Notes: generated by a model not told the origin, from the letters alone. Shown: positions 3,791 to 34,833, counted from the first letter of the stretch. The stretch: 34,833 nucleotides of DNA from Woeseiaceae bacterium (GCA_041562415.1 JBFEXY010000001.1:1-34833), one strand, 5' to 3'. Made by a program: numbers and translations.

Positions 3791-3837
3791 GCGCGGCGAG
3801 TCGCCGCAACTTGGCTCGTTTGGGCCGGTAGCGCATC

Positions 3838-4290
3838 ATGAATGACCCGCAGGGCACCATTGTCGCAATCATCCGGACCGCCGGCGGCGTTCGTGCGATC
3901 GTTGACGTCGAAGCCGGAGTCGCGTGCGCGCGCTGCGCTTCCGGTCGCGGTTGTGGCGCAGGGGTCTTGTCCGGCCGTGCGCGTAACAGCCGGCTGGAAG
4001 TGCTTGTCGATCCGGATCTCGAACTCGCTGAAGGCGACGTCGTGGGCATCGAATTGCCGTCTCGGGACGTATTGGGTGCCGCGTTGACCGTCTATGGTCT
4101 GCCACTGGCCGGCGCGATCTTCGGAGCCGCGTTCGCATATTTGGCCACCCTCGGCGACGGCGGTTCGGCGGCGCTGGCAATTGGCGGGCTTTGCCTCGGT
4201 GTAATAATCAGCCGCCGCCGGCTGCGCGATGCTTCCTGCCTTGCCCGTTTTACTCCCACTGTCTCGCGTCGCGTTGGGCCGGATGTCTGA
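3838..4290 (+). CDS. rseC: RseC/MucC (SoxR-reducing system) family membrane protein
   Basis: N-terminal Cys cluster CARCASGRGCG followed by two TM helices, ~150 aa, fourth gene of the rpoE operon. Confidence 0.8.
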   Translation: MNDPQGTIVAIIRTAGGVRAIVDVEAGVACARCASGRGCGAGVLSGRARNSRLEVLVDPDLELAEGDVVGIELPSRDVLGAALTVYGLPLAGAIFGAAFAYLATLGDGGSAALAIGGLCLGVIISRRRLRDASCLARFTPTVSRRVGPDV

Positions 4291-4537
4291 TATCGAGACG
4301 CCCACTCTTTACGTCTATAGTAGACGCGGCTGCCATCTCTGCGATGTTCTCGTCGAGGAGTTATTGCCGTTGTTGCGGGGCCGCATCGAAGTCGAGGTGA
4401 GGGACATCGACAGCCGTGACGACTGGAGACAACGTTACGACGTGAGGATTCCTGTCGTGGAGTTCGAGGGCGAGGTCGTCTGCCAGTACCGGCTGGACAG
4501 GGCATCAATTGAAGCCATCGTGGCCCGCTACCGGTAA
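4283..4537 (+). CDS. Glutaredoxin-like thioredoxin-fold protein (DUF836-like), CxxC
   Basis: LYVYSRRGCHLCD carries a CxxC after the first beta strand, and RIPVVEF is the cis-Pro region. ATG 4283 overlaps the rseC stop by 8 nt (ATGTCTGA). The track start at 4229 is probably an over-extension. Confidence 0.7.
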   Translation: MSDIETPTLYVYSRRGCHLCDVLVEELLPLLRGRIEVEVRDIDSRDDWRQRYDVRIPVVEFEGEVVCQYRLDRASIEAIVARYR

Positions 4538-4585
4538 ACCGGTATACTTCGCCGGTTTACGCGGCGGCTGCGAAGTCAGCAACTC

Positions 4586-6376
4586 ATGGATCATATTCGA
4601 AACTTTTCAATCATTGCCCATATCGATCACGGCAAGTCGACGCTTGCGGACCGTTTTATCCAGATGTGTGGCGGGTTGACGGAACGTGAGATGGCGGAGC
4701 AGGTGCTCGATTCGATGGACCTCGAGCGGGAGCGGGGCATTACCATAAAGGCCCAGAGCGTCTCGCTCGACTACACGGCAGCCGACGGCGAGACCTATCA
4801 GCTGAATTTCATCGATACACCCGGGCACGTGGATTTCTCATACGAGGTTTCCCGCTCGCTCGCAGCATGCGAGGGCGCGCTGCTGGTTGTTGATGCCGCG
4901 CAGGGCGTGGAGGCGCAAAGCGTTGCAAATTGCGTGACCGCGATCGACCAGGGACTGGAGGTGCTGCCGGTGCTGAACAAGATCGACCTGCCGGCTGCGG
5001 AGCCTGATCGTGTGATGGCAGAGATCGAGGACATTATCGGTATCGACGCGCAGGACTCGGTTCGCACGAGCGCGAAGACCGGCGAGGGGGTTGCGGAGCT
5101 GCTGGAGGCTATTGTGCGGCAGATTCCTCCGCCTCAGGGAGACCCGGAGGCGCCGCTGCAGGCGTTGATCATCGACTCCTGGTTCGACAATTACGTCGGC
5201 GTCGTGTCGCTGGTGCGTGTTATGAACGGTACTCTCTCCAAAGGCGGCAAGATAACAGTGATGTCGACCGGTGTGTCCTACAATGCGGATCGCGTCGGCA
5301 GCTTCACTCCCAAGATGAAGGACAAGGAAGAACTACGGACGGGAGAGGTGGGCTTCGTCATCGCCGGCATCAAGGACATCTTTGGCGCGCCAGTGGGCGA
5401 TACACTGACGATGACACGAAACCCGTGTGACAAGCCGCTGCCGGGATTCAAGCAGGTGCAGCCACGCGTTTTTGCAGGGCTGTTCCCAATACAGTCAGAT
5501 GAGTACGAGAATTTCCGCGAGGCACTTCAAAAGCTGCGCCTCAATGATGCCGCCCTGCATTTCGAGCCGGAGACCTCTGCGGCCCTCGGCTTCGGGTTTC
5601 GTTGCGGGTTTCTCGGCATGCTGCACATGGAGATAGTGCAGGAGCGACTCGAGCGTGAGTACGACCTCGAATTGATTACGACTGCGCCGACCGTGGTTTT
5701 CGAAGTCGTTGATACGTCAGGCAGCGTGACAATGGTCGACAATCCGTCCAGGTTACCGCCGACGAACGAGATTGCCGAATTGCGCGAGCCTATCATTACG
5801 GCGAATATTCTTGTTCCTGACGAGTATGTAGGCTCGGTAATCAAGCTCTGTGTCGAGAAACGCGGCGTACAGAAGCATATCCGCTACCTGGGCAGCCAGG
5901 TGTCCATCGAATACCAGATGCCGCTCGCCGAGGTGGTTATGGATTTCTTTGACCGCCTGAAATCAGTGAGCCGTGGGTTTGCGTCTTTCGATTATCATTT
6001 CGAGCGATTCGAGGCGGCTCAACTCGTGCGTTTGGACGTTCTGATTAACAAGGAGCGTGTCGATGCGCTGTCGATAATTGTGCACCGCGACAAGGCGACG
6101 ACGCGGGGCCGTCAACTCGTCGAAAAGATGCGGGAACTTATTCCGCGGCAAATGTTCGACGTTGCTATACAGGCCGCCGTCGGCAGCCAGGTCATTGCGC
6201 GCAGCAACGTCAAAGCATTGCGCAAGAACGTGACGGCTAAATGCTACGGCGGCGACGTAACGCGCAAGCGCAAGTTGCTGGAGAAGCAAAAGGCCGGTAA
6301 AAGACGTATGAAACAGGTGGGCTCGGTGGAGATCCCCCAGGAAGCGTTTCTTGCAGTTCTTAAAGTAGAAAAGTAA
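4586..6376 (+). CDS. lepA: Elongation factor 4 (LepA)
   Basis: [20 protein letters not shown] (G1), DTPGHVDF (G3) and NKIDL (G4). Length is 596 aa, and the C-terminus has the LepA-specific [25 protein letters not shown]. Confidence 0.97.
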
Positions 6377-6388
6377 TCCGAGGTCCCA

Positions 6389-7144
6389 TTGAGCATTAAC
6401 CTGGCATTGATACTCACGTTGTTGACGGCGCTGACGGGCATCGTCTACCTGCTTGACGTCTTCCTCTGGCACGACTCGAAGCGTGGTAGCGAGGAGCCGC
6501 GAGGCGGCCGGCAGACGCTGGTCGAATACTCGCGCTCTTTCTTTCCGGTGCTACTCATCGTGCTGGTTATTCGCTCGTTCATATTCGAACCGTTTCGCAT
6601 TCCTTCGGGATCGATGATGCCGACGCTGCTGCAGGGCGACTTCATTTTTGTCAAGAAATTCGCGTACGGACTGCGTCTGCCAGTCACGGAAACCAAAATC
6701 CTGGAAACCGGTTCACCGGAGCGCGGCGACGTCGTCGTTTTCCGGCTGCCGCAGGATCCGAGCATCAATTACATCAAGCGCGTAGTCGGATTGCCCGGCG
6801 ACACCGTCGTGTACGAAGATCACCGCCTGACGATCAACGGCGAGTTGGTTGAACTCGAACAGAGCCCGACTGCGAATGCCGGAGAGCCTGTCTATATCGA
6901 AAACCTGGATGGCCGCAGGCACGAGATTCTGATAACGAATGCCTACTCCGTAAGAGACGATGTCTATACAGTCCCGGAGGACCACTACTTCGTCATGGGC
7001 GATAACCGCAACAATAGCAAAGATAGCCGTTTCATCGAGGCTATACCGGAATCCTATCTCGTCGGCGAAGCGGTCCGTGTCTGGATGCATATGGACGGTC
7101 TGAGCTGGCCCCGCTGGGACAGGATCGGTACAAAGATCCAATAA
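6389..7144 (+). CDS. lepB: Signal peptidase I
   Basis: IPSGSMMPTL (catalytic Ser box), YIKRVVGLPGD (catalytic Lys box) and GDNRNNSKDSR (box E). TTG start with GAGG upstream, immediately after lepA. Confidence 0.93.
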   Translation: MSINLALILTLLTALTGIVYLLDVFLWHDSKRGSEEPRGGRQTLVEYSRSFFPVLLIVLVIRSFIFEPFRIPSGSMMPTLLQGDFIFVKKFAYGLRLPVTETKILETGSPERGDVVVFRLPQDPSINYIKRVVGLPGDTVVYEDHRLTINGELVELEQSPTANAGEPVYIENLDGRRHEILITNAYSVRDDVYTVPEDHYFVMGDNRNNSKDSRFIEAIPESYLVGEAVRVWMHMDGLSWPRWDRIGTKIQ

Positions 7145-30437: not shown

Positions 30438-31182
30438 TTTTGTGGTCGTCATTCCGGCGCGCTACGCGTCGACGCGCTTGCCCGGCAAGCCGTTGCGGGA
30501 GATCAACGGCAAAACCATGATCGAGCACGTATACCGACGCGGCTCCGAGAGCGGTGCGCGGGACGTTGTAATTGCGACAGACGATGAGCGCATCGCAGAA
30601 GTCGCCGAGAGCTTCGGTTCAACCGTATGTATGACAGGCGATCATCATCGCTCCGGCACAGAGCGCATCGCGGAAGTGGCCGATCTGATGGACTGGCACG
30701 ACGAGACCATCGTTATCAACCTGCAGGGCGACGAACCGGCGATGCCGCCCGAATTGATCGACCAATGTGCGATCTTGCTGGACGAGTCGTCGGCCGACCT
30801 CGCCACGCTGGCATCGCCGATCCGGTCGGATGAAGACTTCAGCAACCCGAACGTCGTTAAGGTCATACTCGACAACGACGGCTTCGCGATCTACTTCAGT
30901 CGCGCAATGATTCCATTCCCGCGGGATGCGGCACGACTTTCGGACGCGAGGGCAGCGGCACTGCACCACCACGGCATATATGCGTATCGCTGCGGGATAC
31001 TGCGCAGGCTGGTGGCATCCGAGCCGTCGGCGATCGAGCTTGCAGAGCATCTCGAACAGTTACGCGCACTGTCGCTCGGCATGACGATCAGGGTCGGCGT
31101 CCCCGACGTACGGCCCGGTGCAGGCGTCGACACGGAGGAAGACCTGGCGGCTGCGGCACGCGAACTTGGGAGGCGCTCATGA
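30430..31182 (+). CDS. kdsB: 3-deoxy-manno-octulosonate cytidylyltransferase (CMP-KDO synthetase)
   Basis: VVVIPARYASTRLPGKPL, NLQGDEP and HHGIYAYR motifs. ATG 30430 overlaps the lpxK stop by 8 nt. Confidence 0.92.
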   Translation: MIDFVVVIPARYASTRLPGKPLREINGKTMIEHVYRRGSESGARDVVIATDDERIAEVAESFGSTVCMTGDHHRSGTERIAEVADLMDWHDETIVINLQGDEPAMPPELIDQCAILLDESSADLATLASPIRSDEDFSNPNVVKVILDNDGFAIYFSRAMIPFPRDAARLSDARAAALHHHGIYAYRCGILRRLVASEPSAIELAEHLEQLRALSLGMTIRVGVPDVRPGAGVDTEEDLAAAARELGRRS

Positions 31183-31952
31183 AGGGTTTCAGCGCCGCCT
31201 GCCGCGAGATTTACTATGGCCTGTCGCCGCGAGCGTTGCGCGCACAGTATCTGTTCCTTGTATTCGATCTGCTGGTGATCAGCTATTTCGTGGTGACGAC
31301 GTTCCTCGATCCCTACGGCTGGATCGTCACGGTCGACATGATCATCGGCGTAATCCTGGTCATCGATTTTCTTTGCAGGCTTGCAGCCCAGAGAGATCGC
31401 GGGGCTTTCCTCGTCAAGCCGATGACCGTCATCGATTTCGTCGTAATCGCCTCGCTGTTCGTGCCTGCATTGATCGGCAACTTCGCGTTTCTGCGTCTCG
31501 TCCGGTCGCTGCGCCTGTTGCGTTCATACGTCGTCGTGCGTGAACTCCGCAAGCATTTCCGCGTCTTCACCAAGAACGAGGAGGTGATTTTCAGCGCGAT
31601 GAACCTGATCGTCTTCATCTTTCTCGTCACGGCAACCGTTTACGAGTTCCAGGTGCCGGTCAACGACTCGATCAACAACTACATCGATGCGCTGTACTTC
31701 ACGATCACCACACTGACGACGACGGGATTCGGTGACGTTATTTTGGTTGGCAGCACCGGCAGGCTGCTGGCCGTGGTCATCATGATCGTCGGCGTGGCGC
31801 TATTCCTGCGGCTGGTACAGACCATCTTCCGTCCCACCAAGGTGAAGTATGAGTGCCCCGATTGCGGGCTGTCTCGTCACGAACTGGATGCCATTCACTG
31901 TAAGCATTGCGGCCGCCAGTTGCGTATACGTACAGAAGGGCTGCCGGGATAA
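31179..31952 (+). CDS. Compact 6-TM voltage-sensor-type K+ channel with a C-terminal CxxC-x11-CxxC zinc ribbon
   Basis: S4-like FLRLVRSLRLLR has Arg at every third residue. The pore is YFTITTLTTTGFGDV (GFGD selectivity-filter variant). The tail is CPDCGLSRHELDAIHCKHCG. ATGA overlap with kdsB, with GGGAGG 5 nt upstream. Confidence 0.8.
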   Translation: MKGFSAACREIYYGLSPRALRAQYLFLVFDLLVISYFVVTTFLDPYGWIVTVDMIIGVILVIDFLCRLAAQRDRGAFLVKPMTVIDFVVIASLFVPALIGNFAFLRLVRSLRLLRSYVVVRELRKHFRVFTKNEEVIFSAMNLIVFIFLVTATVYEFQVPVNDSINNYIDALYFTITTLTTTGFGDVILVGSTGRLLAVVIMIVGVALFLRLVQTIFRPTKVKYECPDCGLSRHELDAIHCKHCGRQLRIRTEGLPG

Positions 31953-31994
31953 CGGTGGCGAATGCGGCGCCCGGGTCGCGTCCTTAAGTGCGGG

Positions 31995-32048
31995 TTGTCG
32001 ATGACATCTTGTCTAAGTATTGTCTAACAAATATTCCGACACTATACT
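31995..32048 (+). promoter_or_regulatory. Promoter of the MerR-family gene with tandem TTGTCTAA repeats overlapping the -35
   Basis: TTGTCTAA at 32009-32016 and 32020-32027 (11-bp phasing), with an extra TTGTC at 31995. TTGTCT (32020-32025), a 17-nt spacer, then TATACT (32043-32048). Confidence 0.55.
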
Positions 32049-32109
32049 TGCGCCTGATTCCCAGCCGATGCGGCCGAGCGTTTAGCCTCGGACCCTTCAG
32101 GAGACGACT

Positions 32110-33087
32110 ATGTCTGAAAATACCGCCGATACCCTGCTCTACGGCATCGGAGCCGTCGCCAAGCTCACGGGCCTTACCGACCACACTATCCGCGTCTGGG
32201 AGCGCCGCTATGCCGCGGTAGTAACCACCAGGGCGCCCAACGGCCGCCGACAGTACACGGAATCCGATGTGGAGAAGCTCGGACTGCTGAAATCCTTGAC
32301 GGACCGGGGCATTTCCATAAGCCGCATTGCGGGTGATTCCGTCGACGCACTCAAGGCCAGGGCACACAGTTTGCGGGATCTTGCGCCTGGACCGGGCCCC
32401 GATACGATCACGGTCGCACTGCTTGGCGACTTCCTGCCTCGCCAGCTAAGCGAGGAACAACACGGCAAGGCGCCGCTTGATATCCGCGTGGCCGATTCCA
32501 GCCGCGAGCGATTCAAAGCAGACCTGGGGCAACAACCGGTCGATGTCGTCGTGCTGGAAAGACCGGTTCTGGACACAGAGACCGTGGCGGAAATGCAGGA
32601 GTACCTGTCGGAAGGCAACGCCAGCCGCGGCGTCATTGTCTACTCTTTCGGACGGTCACAAGACATTGAATTTGCAAGAAAAGAAGGCATCGAAGCTGTG
32701 CGCGCGCCGATCGGCGCAGAGGAATTACACGCGGCCGCCACGCGCAGCCGACTAGAGGTCCATGGTGCGATGACCGAATCGCGGCCAGTCGAGGATGCCG
32801 CGACCGATTGGGATTTCACCGGCCCGGTTGCCGTTCGCCGCTTCAGCCCGCAACAGCTTGCAAACCTCGCGTCTGTCGAAAGCAATGTCGATTGCGAGTG
32901 TCCAAAACATCTTGCACAACTGGTTTCCGACCTGAGTGCGTTCGAGATTTACAGTGACCGGTGCGCTAACAAGGGCGACGAGGATGCTGCACTGCACCGC
33001 TACCTGCATCGGGCGACCGCCGGGGCGCGAGTACTTGTCGAGAAGGCGCTGCAGAAGCTCGCGGACGCCGAAGGGCTGAGCTTCTGA
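32110..33087 (+). CDS. MerR-family transcriptional regulator, LitR/CarH-like architecture but without a B12-binding His motif; Cys/His-rich C-terminal domain
   Basis: N-terminal MerR HTH is YGIGAVAKLTGLTDHTIRVWERRY...RRQYTESDVEKLGLLKSL. A central flavodoxin-like segment follows (ITVALLGDF..., VDVVVLERP..., RGVIVYSFG..., GIEAVRAPIGAEEL). The C-terminus is VDCECPKHLAQLVSDLSAFEIYSDRCANKGDEDAALHRYLH. AGGAG lies 6 nt before the ATG. Confidence 0.85.
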   Translation: MSENTADTLLYGIGAVAKLTGLTDHTIRVWERRYAAVVTTRAPNGRRQYTESDVEKLGLLKSLTDRGISISRIAGDSVDALKARAHSLRDLAPGPGPDTITVALLGDFLPRQLSEEQHGKAPLDIRVADSSRERFKADLGQQPVDVVVLERPVLDTETVAEMQEYLSEGNASRGVIVYSFGRSQDIEFARKEGIEAVRAPIGAEELHAAATRSRLEVHGAMTESRPVEDAATDWDFTGPVAVRRFSPQQLANLASVESNVDCECPKHLAQLVSDLSAFEIYSDRCANKGDEDAALHRYLHRATAGARVLVEKALQKLADAEGLSF

Positions 33088-33112
33088 CGGCCCGTGAAGC
33101 ACCGTGATTATG

Positions 33113-33139
33113 TTTTGTCTATAAAATAAATAGACAAAA
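33113..33139. promoter_or_regulatory. Perfect 10-bp-arm palindrome (putative operator) sharing the TTGTCTA half-site with the merR-family promoter
   Basis: TTTTGTCTAT-AAAATAA-ATAGACAAAA. It ends 2 nt before a consensus -35 TTGACA. Confidence 0.55.
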
Positions 33140-33141
33140 GG

Positions 33142-33169
33142 TTGACAATAATTTATTTCCAGGTATTCT
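33142..33169 (+). promoter_or_regulatory. Strong sigma-70-type promoter
   Basis: TTGACA (33142-33147), a 16-nt AT-rich spacer, then TATTCT (33164-33169). Confidence 0.55.
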
Positions 33170-33174
33170 GAGGT

Positions 33175-33278
33175 TTCGGTCACAGCACAAATGTGCAACC
33201 GCTTAGAGACAGTCTTCACCTCCCCCGAACCCGCTGTCTCTGCTCTAGGTGGCCGACGCTCGCGTCGGCCACTTTTTT
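33175..33278 (+). ncRNA. Candidate ~100-nt sRNA or 5' leader: hairpin with anti-SD-like loop plus intrinsic terminator (5' end predicted, not observed)
   Basis: Hairpin 33204-33212 / 33234-33242 (8 Watson-Crick pairs + 1 GU) with the loop UCUUCACCUCCCCCGAACCCG. The terminator follows at 33249-33278. No SD-led ORF fits inside. Confidence 0.45.
33249..33278 (+). terminator. Rho-independent terminator
   Basis: GTGGCCGACG-CTCG-CGTCGGCCAC (10-bp GC-rich stem, 4-nt loop) followed directly by TTTTTT. Confidence 0.85.
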
Positions 33279-33343
33279 GACCAGAGATATGGCCACGGTC
33301 CGGACCGAAACATGCGGATCGGCTTTTGGAAAGGGGAGCGCCC

Positions 33344-33424
33344 GTGGCAGGCACGCCGCCGTCGCGAGGATCAGGTGAGCAGAGTTACGTCTCCGTAGCG
33401 GCTAACTGCAGGGAGTCTCGGTGA
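33344..33424 (+). CDS. Hypothetical 26-codon upstream micro-ORF (speculative)
   Basis: GGGGAG (33333-33338), 5 nt, then GTG 33344. Peptide VAGTPPSRGSGEQSYVSVAANCRESR. Stop TGA 33422-33424 overlaps the next start (GTGATG). Confidence 0.2.
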   Translation: MAGTPPSRGSGEQSYVSVAANCRESR

Positions 33425-33567
33425 TGCTCATGTTCGGCTTCTTCATGTCTGTTCTCGCGGTGATGCTTTTCGTCGAATGGCAGTACTCGGTGATGCGTCG
33501 ACGCATACAGGTACGCTCGGAAGACCGCCCACGGTCACGATCTCTAACGCAAGAAAGGCGCTACTGA
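33424..33567 (+). CDS. Hypothetical 47-aa single-pass membrane micro-protein (below the ORF-track length cutoff)
   Basis: AGGGAG (33410-33415) lies 8 nt before ATG 33424, and GTG 33421 is also possible. Peptide MLMFGFFMSVLAVMLFVEWQYSVMRRRIQVRSEDRPRSRSLTQERRY: a hydrophobic helix followed by a basic tail. The stop lies 10 nt before the photolyase-like gene. Confidence 0.4.
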   Translation: MLMFGFFMSVLAVMLFVEWQYSVMRRRIQVRSEDRPRSRSLTQERRY

Positions 33568-33577
33568 GTCGCCAGCC

Positions 33578-34833
33578 GTGGTCGAGAAGCCATTTCGGAG
33601 GTCAAGTCGCCGGGTCGCCCTCGAGGCGCTCCACGACTTCATGCCCCGCGCCGGTGCAGACTATACGTCGCGCCGCAATTTCGACCACGGTCCAGCAAAG
33701 CACGACCACGTGTCGATGTTATCGCCATATATTCGACACCGGGTGATTCATGACGCGGAAGTACTCGACGCGACGCTCGACGTTCACGGCGCTTCCGGCG
33801 CGTCAAAATTTATCGAAGAAATTTTCTGGCGGTCCTACTTCAAAGGATGGCTTGAACAGCACCCGACCGTATGGTCCGACTACCGGGCAACAGTCAGCGG
33901 GTTGATCGAGTCGTTGGATTCGAATGGCGACCTGCGCAGTCGCTACGAGGCGGCGACCGGAGCCTCTACCGGGATAGACTGTTTCGACGCCTGGGTGTCA
34001 GAACTTGTCTCTACCGGTTACCTGCACAATCACGCGCGAATGTGGTTTGCGAGCATCTGGGTGTATACGCTTCGGCTACCCTGGCAGCTCGGTGCAGATT
34101 TCTTCTATCGACATCTCGTGGACGGAGATCCTGCAAGCAACACCTTGAGCTGGCGTTGGGTCTGCGGTCTGCACACAAAGGGCAAGACCTACCTGGCTCG
34201 GGTTTCCAACATAGTCAGCTACACGGGCGGACGCTTTGATCCCGGTGGGCAACTCGCGCACGAAGCGCCACCGCTCCGAGAGGCGCGAATACATTCGCGT
34301 CGTCCGCTTCCAGCGACAGAAAAGATTCCGGCGCGTGCATCCTTCGGATTGCTCATAACAGAAGAGAACTGCTCGCTCGAAACAGTAGAAATGGACCGGC
34401 CGCCGATCGCCGTGATGGGGGCCGTAACAACCAATTCGCGGTCGCCGTTGCCGGTTGGCTTTCCGGCACGCGAGTTCGCAATGGGAGCCGTTGCCGACGC
34501 CGTGGATCGGGCAGCGCGAAAATACGGTATCCCCGCGCAGGGCGTGCGCAGCGAAGACTGGGAAGCCGCACTGGTTGCCTGGGCACGCTCAAACGGTCTG
34601 GATACGATCGTAACGGCATATGCTCCGGTAGGGCCGGTGGCCGAACGGCTCGCACGGGCTCGGCACTCACTGGCGGGGCACGGCGTTGAATTAGTTCAGG
34701 TCATGCAAAGCTACGATACCTGTGTCTGGCCTCACGCGGCCGGGGGCTTTTTCAAACTGAAATCCCGCATCCCTGAATTGCTCCGCGAACTCGGACTCGT
34801 CGGGGCGGACGACAAATCGCGGCGCATTGCCGG
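33578..34833 (+). CDS. Photolyase/cryptochrome-family FAD-binding protein with the helical FAD domain at the N-terminus; 3' end lies outside the window
   Basis: I translated this frame codon by codon; it is open from 33548 to the window end, and because it has no stop in the window it is absent from the ORF track. Motifs: RRVALEALHDFMPRAGADYTSRRNF, MLSPYIRHR, TGIDCFDAWVSELVSTGYLHNHARMWFASIW and LVDGDPASNTLSWRWVCG, all photolyase FAD_binding_7-type. GTG 33578 is the first start after an in-frame TAA at 33545. Confidence 0.85.
   Translation, partial: MVEKPFRRSSRRVALEALHDFMPRAGADYTSRRNFDHGPAKHDHVSMLSPYIRHRVIHDAEVLDATLDVHGASGASKFIEEIFWRSYFKGWLEQHPTVWSDYRATVSGLIESLDSNGDLRSRYEAATGASTGIDCFDAWVSELVSTGYLHNHARMWFASIWVYTLRLPWQLGADFFYRHLVDGDPASNTLSWRWVCGLHTKGKTYLARVSNIVSYTGGRFDPGGQLAHEAPPLREARIHSRRPLPATEKIPARASFGLLITEENCSLETVEMDRPPIAVMGAVTTNSRSPLPVGFPAREFAMGAVADAVDRAARKYGIPAQGVRSEDWEAALVAWARSNGLDTIVTAYAPVGPVAERLARARHSLAGHGVELVQVMQSYDTCVWPHAAGGFFKLKSRIPELLRELGLVGADDKSRRIA

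Follow-up and report, generated by a model that had tools for sequence, protein, structure and literature searches.

Introduction

In Vibrio cholerae, a MerR-like protein encoded beside phr mediates the response to blue light (PMC5241685), and in Pseudomonas the class II LitR proteins act as repressors with half-sites placed over the -35 element, counting folE, photolyase and cyclopropane fatty acid (CFA)-synthase-type genes among their regulon members (PMC9758184). The photolyases of the NewPHL class combine an inverted topology and a Z-domain carrying one conserved tryptophan and a GFF motif with the repair of cyclobutane pyrimidine dimers (CPD) in single-stranded DNA (ssDNA); the paper that defined the class does not address regulation, the words 'MerR', 'LitR' and 'operon' each having zero occurrences in it (PMC7736829). 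Small RNAs with C-rich loops that pair with ribosome-binding sites are likewise an established theme, represented by CcsR/cuckoo and RNAIII (PMC4615179, PMC8034643). Here we analyze a stretch of 34,833 nucleotides (hereafter referred to as the window) from a Woeseiaceae bacterium (GCA_041562415.1, JBFEXY010000001.1:1-34833), near the 3' end of which a gene for a MerR-family regulator is followed on the same strand by a structured leader RNA, a gene for a 47-aa microprotein and the gene for a NewPHL-class photolyase.

We consider it fairly probable that this locus constitutes a module of Woeseiaceae for DNA photorepair and oxidative damage that is controlled by a repressor, and that its leader doubles as an attenuator and as a small RNA with a C-rich loop. 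In coastal and deep-sea sediments, Woeseiaceae reportedly rank with the most abundant bacteria. NewPHL enzymes have been described only biochemically so far, and the locus offers a testable circuit for them, composed of two operators, one regulator and one leader RNA.

Conservation and synteny of the locus

In a species-level genome collection, 47 loci have a clear regulator orthologue, all 47 of which belong to uncultured Woeseiaceae or closely related gammaproteobacterial metagenome-assembled genomes (MAGs). Several contigs of 23-45 kb, from metagenomes and MAGs, also encode an identical regulator protein and extend the window downstream. A preliminary description of the region, made from the window alone, had regarded the regulator, a shared operator, a hairpin RNA, two micro-open reading frames (micro-ORFs) and a photolyase-like gene as a single same-strand unit, and the comparative data bear this out. 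Synteny is strict: the same gene order is found in ~40 related loci, with the NewPHL gene downstream in 35 of the ~40 regulator-anchored loci that have enough downstream sequence. A complementary search anchored on the RNA, performed as a DNA-pattern scan of metagenomes in which no proteins were used, listed 80 loci and yielded at least 13 genuine RNA copies among them. All 13 of these copies, among the matches listed, lie between a regulator orthologue and genes for a high-potential iron-sulfur protein (HiPIP), the microprotein or NewPHL. Every gene in the 31179-34833 region of the window is encoded on the plus strand (Table 1).

Table 1. Features identified at the 3' end of the window, with positions counted from its first nucleotide.
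Feature	Position	Strand	Description and basis
K+ channel gene	31179-31952	+	Upstream neighbor of the regulator gene
Regulator-promoter operator	32010-32041	+	TGTCTA-N5-TGTCTA direct repeat (32010-32026) plus degenerate inverted CGACA; pattern scan, conserved
Regulator promoter	32020-32048	+	Sigma-70-like, TTGTCT-17-TATACT; promoter scan
MerR-family regulator gene	32110-33087	+	325 aa; helix-turn-helix (HTH) at residues 1-75
Leader-RNA operator	33113-33147		Perfect palindrome TGTCTA-N9-TAGACA (33116-33136) plus third half-site; conserved
Leader-RNA promoter	33142-33169	+	Near-consensus sigma-70, TTGACA-16-TATTCT; scan, conserved in ~40 loci
Structured leader/small RNA	~33176-33280	+	~105 nt; fold, covariation, 40 loci
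P1	33177-33201	+	5' hairpin with tetraloop; predicted fold
P2	33205-33241	+	Hairpin with C-rich 19-nt loop CUUCACCUCCCCCGAACCC at 33214-33232
P3	33247-33274	+	GC-rich intrinsic terminator, 10-12 bp, with U6 tract at 33273-33278
Micro-ORF 1	33345-33424	+	26 aa from a GTG; its stop overlaps the ATG that follows; not conserved
47-aa microprotein ORF	33424-33567	+	Gene call in source contigs, 29 aligned orthologues
NewPHL-class photolyase gene	33578-34833	+	419 aa; last codon and stop beyond the window

A conserved three-hairpin RNA precedes the photolyase gene

The segment immediately downstream of the second promoter (~33176-33280) folds into three hairpins with a minimum free energy of -47.1 kcal/mol (z = -6.2), the last of which, the terminator P3, escaped a simple scan and is evident in the fold. 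The three-hairpin architecture is predicted separately for each of 39 non-identical orthologous sequences, and RNAalifold together with a covariance model returns one strong match per locus (48-93 bits), always in the same position. Weak extra matches at two loci (L016 1280-1393 and L027 11309-11424) were rejected as paralogues, being ordinary gene-end terminators. In the model-based alignment 95% of the cells pair and double (compensatory) changes occur in 11 of the 18 pairs, including 7 of the 9 in P2; none of 500 shuffles reaches the observed pairing values and no slid register approaches them. The model-based alignment is fitted to the structure, but pair counts were the same with a plain MAFFT alignment. 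P1 cannot be aligned between clades yet is present almost everywhere (mean z -1.56, negative in 37 of the 40 copies), and in many clades its loop is C-rich too.

The preliminary description had reported a hairpin RNA of ~100 nt ending in a terminator and bearing a loop that resembles the anti-Shine-Dalgarno (anti-SD) sequence of 16S rRNA, and the fold and its covariation in 40 loci substantiate that element. The CACCUCC motif in the P2 loop is identical to the 16S anti-SD core, and this exact form is specific to the clade of the window; the single-stranded core conserved across the family is UCCCCC(G)A together with a second C-tract. No credible Rfam family was identified for the RNA, either in the whole window at the gathering threshold or in the 33090-33600 segment at a permissive E-value. 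It is a clean candidate for a new Rfam family, with covariation support in hand. The P3 stem, GCCGGCG/CGCCGGC, is almost invariant in the 40 loci, a degree of conservation that termination does not require, and besides terminating transcripts P3 may act in a sequence-specific way.

Two promoters with a common operator layout

Two further elements of the preliminary description, a set of 11-bp-phased repeats at the regulator promoter and a perfect palindrome abutting a -35 hexamer downstream of the regulator gene, were both recovered here. With one mismatch allowed, the direct-repeat pattern matches twice in the window against 0.03 matches expected by chance, the second match being, on the minus strand, the -35 region at the downstream promoter. 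At the regulator promoter, the second TGTCTA copy overlaps the -35 hexamer, a two-mismatch version of the TGTCTA-N9-TAGACA palindrome follows the direct repeat (32021-32041), and the -10 region is conserved in relatives as CACTATACT or CAATATATG. At the leader-RNA promoter, which has a predicted transcription start at ~33176, the abutting palindrome is conserved in relatives, and the third half-site, 11 bp further on, is the -35 hexamer TTGACA itself. Both promoters therefore have the same three-half-site layout, with two half-sites in 11-bp phase, one inverted and a half-site on the -35 element, the leader-RNA operator being the layout of the regulator promoter on the opposite strand.

The direct repeat upstream of the regulator gene is retained in nearly all of the ~40 orthologous loci, and both operator arrangements are conserved in loci whose orthologues share 47-70% identity; the conservation in related genomes of the TTGTCTA motif and the RNA hairpin, on which the preliminary description had staked its reading, is thus found across ~40 loci. 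Many relatives have two extra (G/A)(T/A)TACA repeats upstream of the palindrome, which are degenerate in the window. A promoter scan of the 31800-34833 region detected only the two sigma-70-like promoters listed in Table 1. Across 12 loci scanned, operator sites are confined to two places, the regulator gene's promoter region and the promoter just 3' of that gene; one of the 12 (L032) has no operator sites, and operators upstream of the glutathione peroxidase (GSHPx) or Fpg genes were looked for and not found. Since the spacers are of normal length (16-17 bp) and the half-sites lie over the -35 elements, the most likely mode of action of the MerR-family regulator is putative repression by occlusion, with autoregulation, by analogy with class II LitR (PMC9758184), rather than MerR-type distortion of the spacer.

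The operon encodes a NewPHL photolyase and a membrane microprotein

The flavin adenine dinucleotide (FAD) domain of the photolyase is N-terminal, with the Pfam FAD_binding_7 model covering residues 78-226 and residues 10-246 aligning to positions ~205-457 of two-domain photolyases, which correspond to their C-terminal catalytic domain. No match to the antenna domain model (DNA_photolyase, PF00875) was detected with Pfam in the 419-aa protein. The C-terminal Z-domain has, within the last 170 residues, the WPHAxxG(F/Y)F motif, which reads WPHAAGGFF in the window protein (...CVWPHAAGGFFKLKS...); 26 orthologues all have W384, P385, G390 and F392, with either F or Y at position 391. The segments EEIFWRSYF, HNHARMWFAS and DGDPASNTLSWRW align with their counterparts in 4u63, 1tez and 1dnp and are invariant among orthologues, and we take them to correspond to the active-site motifs as numbered in the E. 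coli enzyme. The enzyme thus resembles the published NewPHL proteins in its N-terminal catalytic FAD domain, the lack of an antenna domain, a C-terminal Z-domain of ~150-190 aa with a conserved tryptophan and a G(F/Y)F motif, the retention of CPD-photolyase active-site motifs and a size of ~420 aa (Emmerich et al., 2020, Nucleic Acids Research, PMC7736829). As judged by its sequence, the flavoprotein is a member of the NewPHL class, and nothing separates the two at that level. The unusual domain order noted in the preliminary description is therefore real with regard to the N-terminal position of the FAD domain, and is that of an already described class (PMC7736829).

The preliminary description had also proposed two SD-led micro-ORFs downstream of the RNA. 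The second of these is conserved in 29 of 38 loci, with tblastn matches in relatives, and encodes the microprotein, which begins with a transmembrane helix, continues in an Arg-rich tail and has no Pfam match; its ORF usually ends 50 nt or less from the NewPHL start. The first is not conserved, has no gene call in the source contigs and occupies the place of the HiPIP gene in relatives; it probably does not represent a gene. A HiPIP gene with a Tat signal separates the leader RNA from the microprotein in most relatives (for instance at L007 7192-7536 and L055 9217-9567), so placed as to be co-transcribed with a photolyase, and the 33281-33423 spacer of the window is in the corresponding place. 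A 16-codon in-frame HiPIP remnant is present at L008 and a decayed HiPIP copy at L009. By its position, and with these two loci as visible intermediate states of decay, the window appears to have lost the HiPIP gene; similarity of the spacer to HiPIP was not significant by tblastn or blastn, the best match being RPWQARRR against RPTMTRRR (E=0.5).

The regulator combines a LitR/CarH-like HTH with a distinct sensor module

The regulator consists of the HTH, a CheY-like pseudo-receiver (residues ~100-212) and a C-terminal three-helix domain. The HTH is the only part matched by known Pfam or NCBIfam models, no model in either database matching the sensor module. The best PDB sequence matches of the HTH are 5c8d (CarH) and 3whp (LitR), with E ~2e-8 over residues 7-68. 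For the full-length AlphaFold model (predicted local distance difference test [pLDDT] 73), the top Foldseek matches are to TtCarH with E ~1e-6 and TM-scores of just 0.22-0.27. A model of the sensor (residues 96-325), built on 66 diverse homologues, attains a pLDDT of 89.9 and a predicted TM-score (pTM) of 0.84, and comprises a five-stranded CheY-like domain and a three-helix C-terminal domain. Foldseek relates the CheY-like part to the receiver domains of CpaE, Spo0F and DctD; it returned no PDB match to the sensor model at E<=1e-3, the 50 best matches do not include CarH, and photocobilins, at E>=1e-2, are the only B12-binding proteins among them. No B12-binding or B12-binding_2 Pfam match was found in the regulator at E<=0.1, and the loop after beta-1 of the sensor reads GDFLP, without a His. 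A B12/CarH-type sensor was ruled out on the grounds that the B12-binding Pfam models do not match and that the sensor model fits receiver domains. Of the LitR/CarH assignment made in the preliminary description, the kinship of the HTH with CarH and LitR therefore stands and the B12-binding module is missing.

In the alignment, Glu150 is found at what we take, from general knowledge of receiver domains, to be the canonical phospho-acceptor position, and the K-P motif is replaced by R198-x-P200; for these two reasons the CheY-like domain is probably a pseudo-receiver. In the C-terminal domain, C262, C264, C285 and H296 are invariant in homologues down to ~28-30% identity, as are F278, E279 and Y281, with P265 and H267 nearly so. 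The invariance of the three cysteines and the histidine suggests that this putative Cys3His site is a metal or redox centre.

An exhaustive HMMER search recovered 1172 clusters (50% identity) at E<=1e-3, 923 of them at E<=1e-10. Among the 150 best listed homologues, the full-length ones are ~300-360 aa long and do not differ in where the module lies, and the shorter ones look like fragments. One homologue is annotated by the Joint Genome Institute (JGI) as 'light-induced transcriptional regulator'. The sensor module thus defines a large family without a Pfam or NCBIfam model, and assigning its signal would annotate many genomes.

Proposed circuit and its alternatives

From the arrangement described above we infer repression, an inducing signal, partial read-through and a possible trans-acting role of the RNA. 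The regulator would bind the TGTCTA half-sites over the -35 element at its own promoter and at the promoter just 3' of its gene, and would repress both by occlusion, as LitR/CarH proteins do, thus regulating itself. Relief of repression would come from a signal, probably light-generated oxidative stress or a partner photoreceptor, acting via the pseudo-receiver and the Cys3His domain. The second promoter would then fire, producing the leader with its 5' hairpin, its hairpin with a C-rich anti-SD-like loop and its strong intrinsic terminator. Most transcripts would stop at P3, giving a stable small RNA with a C-rich loop, and a fraction would read through into the genes for HiPIP (in relatives), the 47-aa membrane microprotein and the NewPHL ssDNA photolyase. 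In this genome, read-through would probably also express glutathione peroxidase and Fpg.

Transcription through P3 is indicated by the spacing of the locus. The first downstream start codon lies 9-36 nt past the RNA in 34 of the 40 loci, the first gene after the RNA being NewPHL itself in four of them (L012-14 and L029), and the scan of the window detected no promoter-like site at 33281-33423, between the terminator and the genes. With start codons so close and no intervening promoter-like site, there is no room for another promoter and, on this sequence layout, the operon must be transcribed through P3. An intrinsic terminator directly upstream of an ORF, with no intervening promoter, is a feature of terminator-type riboswitches and attenuators, and it is present here. 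We regard a leader with a dual role, as a terminated small RNA and as the start of transcripts that partially read through, as the best reading of these data.

Several observations weigh against this reading or against the proposed link to light. No conserved antiterminator pairing was apparent on inspection of the 40 copies, no formal search for alternative structures having been run. The loop is not preferentially complementary to the ribosome-binding sites of its own operon: in a comparison covering three loci with gene calls, its duplex energies with the initiation regions place HiPIP, the microprotein and NewPHL mid-range or at the bottom among 14-20 neighboring genes. The U-tract is degenerate, with the hairpin kept, in five loci (L034, L036, L038, L039 and L053), so P3 may not always terminate. 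Two lineages (L041 and L051) have no such RNA although operator and promoter are retained, and in L032, from a Lysobacterales bin, the regulator stop is 6 nt from the NewPHL start (6948-6954). Neither B12, LOV nor any other known photosensory module was found in the sensor, and two distant members of the sensor family (30-32% identity) are not beside photolyases. Finally, what points to a dependence on light or reactive oxygen species (ROS) is gene content only.

The exceptional loci also have features of their own. L041 and L051 (6950-7110) have a short 5' untranslated region (UTR) before HiPIP in place of the three-hairpin RNA, and L032 has neither RNA nor promoter between regulator and NewPHL; the three loci can be considered natural 'deletion variants'. 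Of the distant sensor-family members, at L179 7001-8008 and L180 7001-7987, one comes after a gene of the sigma-70 family, the other after a fliF-fliK flagellar cluster. Given these neighbors, a light link of the whole sensor family is not demonstrable, and the family, with more than 900 clusters, probably serves several regulons. The photolyase linkage that the preliminary description had anticipated for regulator orthologues consequently holds for the Woeseiaceae-type ones and does not extend to these two.

The main rival to the dual-role leader is a purely cis-acting attenuator or riboswitch-like leader, in which P1 and P2 would sense a metabolite, a protein or another factor and decide the fate of P3, with no function in trans. 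The closeness of the terminator to the first start codon, which leaves no room for a promoter, fits this alternative, as do the single RNA copy per locus, always in the same position, and the high conservation of the UCCCCC(G)A loop core and the P3 stem sequence. However, the RNA offers no mutually exclusive antiterminator pairing on inspection, consists of simple hairpins, two besides the terminator, with no multi-helix junction, and has neither an Rfam match nor a conserved leader peptide, and L041 and L051 manage without it. On balance we deem this explanation possible but unlikely. Attenuation by a leader peptide in particular was ruled out, since just 17 of the 40 RNA copies hold any ATG and no ORF is conserved.

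The model put forward in the preliminary description, in which the C-rich P2 loop is a cis-acting anti-SD element that masks the ribosome-binding site of whichever gene comes first downstream and pairs specifically with the SDs of the micro-ORFs, draws on the CACCUCC of the window-clade loop and on the GGGGAG and GGGAG sequences downstream. Nevertheless, the loop is no more complementary to the initiation regions of the operon than to those of neighboring genes, as the energies above indicate, so that specific loop-SD pairing was ruled out, the pairing is generic and the model is not supported. Furthermore, the core conserved across the family is UCCCCC(G)A and not CACCUCC, and the first downstream gene varies between HiPIP, the microprotein and NewPHL, all with ordinary SDs. 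We therefore view this model as improbable. It is just as hard to credit that the hairpins merely form the terminator or 3' UTR of the regulator gene and a stabilizing 5' hairpin of the operon mRNA, with no regulatory role: P3 is indeed the first terminator after the regulator gene, so that regulator transcripts would end there too, and some lineages lack the RNA, but the sequence directly preceding the RNA holds a conserved promoter that is close to consensus and under operator control, and the P2 loop is conserved across 47-70% protein identity while the stems covary, which is unexpected for a plain terminator or spacer.

A bolder extension of the dual-role leader is that the RNA represents a new class, acting both as a conditional terminator that gates a photolyase operon and as the source of a light/ROS-induced small RNA with a C-rich loop, and driven by a new kind of MerR sensor, a pseudo-receiver with a Cys3His metal or redox centre, that detects photo-oxidative stress independently of B12 or a LOV partner. 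We put this forward tentatively, as a proposition we would at present rather doubt. If true, NewPHL photolyases would thereby gain their first described regulatory circuit, and an abundant sediment lineage would have a functional substitute for the sigmaE-ChrR singlet-oxygen switch. Overall, the observations of the preliminary description are largely confirmed, well above chance, and its interpretation is supported in part.

Wider genomic neighborhood

Beyond the window, the longer source contigs encode a glutathione peroxidase, an Fpg/Nei glycosylase, two c-type cytochromes and a low-molecular-weight phosphatase, followed by an RNase E gene on the opposite strand. The gap between NewPHL and glutathione peroxidase is 89 nt (L001 12729-12816) and holds a GGATGC...GCATCC hairpin and then a weak T-run; no TGTCTA operator was found in this gap, which starts just past the window end. 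At L018, GSHPx follows. The K+ channel encoded upstream of the regulator is of the voltage-gated type and has a C-terminal CPDC...CKHC zinc-ribbon-like tail, with weak Pfam zinc-ribbon matches; its gene also precedes the regulator in the closest relatives, with other upstream genes in more distant clades.

In more distant clades, the regulator shares its operator region with a divergent operon for DUF4149, EamA, a CMAS-like methyltransferase and a FeS-BCP-type photolyase, and amine oxidase, DUF3429, GSHPx, Fpg and superoxide dismutase (SOD) genes are found nearby. The divergent operon lies at L055 4267-7904 (minus strand) and L057 3724-7372, and starts beside the TGTCTA operator; the same operator may therefore control two different photolyases. 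At L050 (~3825-5400), a canonical two-domain photolyase (DNA_photolyase plus FAD_binding_7) is encoded between the leader RNA and NewPHL. At L043 (6956-8927), a regulator orthologue with 52% identity is followed by FolB, GTP cyclohydrolase I (FolE) and a short-chain dehydrogenase/reductase (SDR), genes for pterin and photolyase-antenna cofactor synthesis that replace the RNA and NewPHL. The neighborhood supports a function in UV and photo-oxidative repair and does not identify the signal.

Comparison with known systems

The locus resembles the LitR/CarH systems (PMC9758184) and the V. cholerae VCA0056-phr operon (PMC5241685) in that the regulator gene adjoins photolyase genes. It further shares with LitR/CarH an HTH closest to those of TtCarH and LitR, repeated half-sites over the -35 element with likely autoregulation, and folE and CFA-synthase-like genes in the neighborhood, and its TGTCTA half-site resembles the PplR1/PmlR2 site TGTACA. 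In contrast to class I LitR/CarH proteins, which have a B12 four-helix bundle and a Rossmann module with a His ligand, the window regulator has no such module, and unlike the class II LitR proteins of Pseudomonas (PplR/PmlR), which retain the B12-binding_2 four-helix bundle, it shows no match to that domain. The operators differ as well, with TGTACA-N12-TGTACA in class II and TGTCTA in N5 direct and N9 inverted arrangement in the window. This comparison covered classes I and II; Sumi and colleagues, in 2018, reportedly defined LitR classes III-V by phylogeny, with class-specific C-terminal domains. The classical MerR activators (MerR, CueR and SoxR) have the operator palindrome within an over-long -35/-10 spacer of 19-20 bp, whereas the spacers here are 16 and 17 bp and the half-sites overlap or flank the -35 element.

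With regard to the RNA, the CcsR/cuckoo small RNAs of Alphaproteobacteria and the UCCC hairpins of Staphylococcus RNAIII likewise have 9-27-nt loops with a C-rich anti-SD-like motif, and CcsR/cuckoo also resembles the window RNA in its link to photo-oxidative or other stress regulons, a co-transcribed small-protein gene and a terminator hairpin at the end. The CcsR/cuckoo motif is CCUCCUCCC, found in the loop of each of two to four adjacent hairpins (PMC4615179), whereas the window RNA has one main motif hairpin with CACCUCCCCC, or UCCCCC(G)A in the family. The window RNA differs further in its gammaproteobacterial host, its single copy and its fixed position as the 5' leader of a photolyase operon, and has no DUF1127 neighbor and no Rfam match. 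CcsR/cuckoo is the closest thematic parallel, but the window RNA lacks the defining features of that family. Short transcripts that terminate directly upstream of co-directional promoterless genes are exemplified by rnTrpL of Sinorhizobium and sgrS-setA of E. coli. Unlike these, the window RNA has no leader peptide or recognizable antiterminator, and its promoter is controlled by a dedicated adjacent MerR-type regulator.

Relative to the work that established the NewPHL class, what is new here is the genomic and regulatory context, made up of the MerR regulator, the leader RNA, the microprotein and HiPIP. The enzyme is thus known and the pairing of such a regulator with a photolyase is known in kind; the new elements are the leader RNA, the architecture of the sensor and the microprotein.

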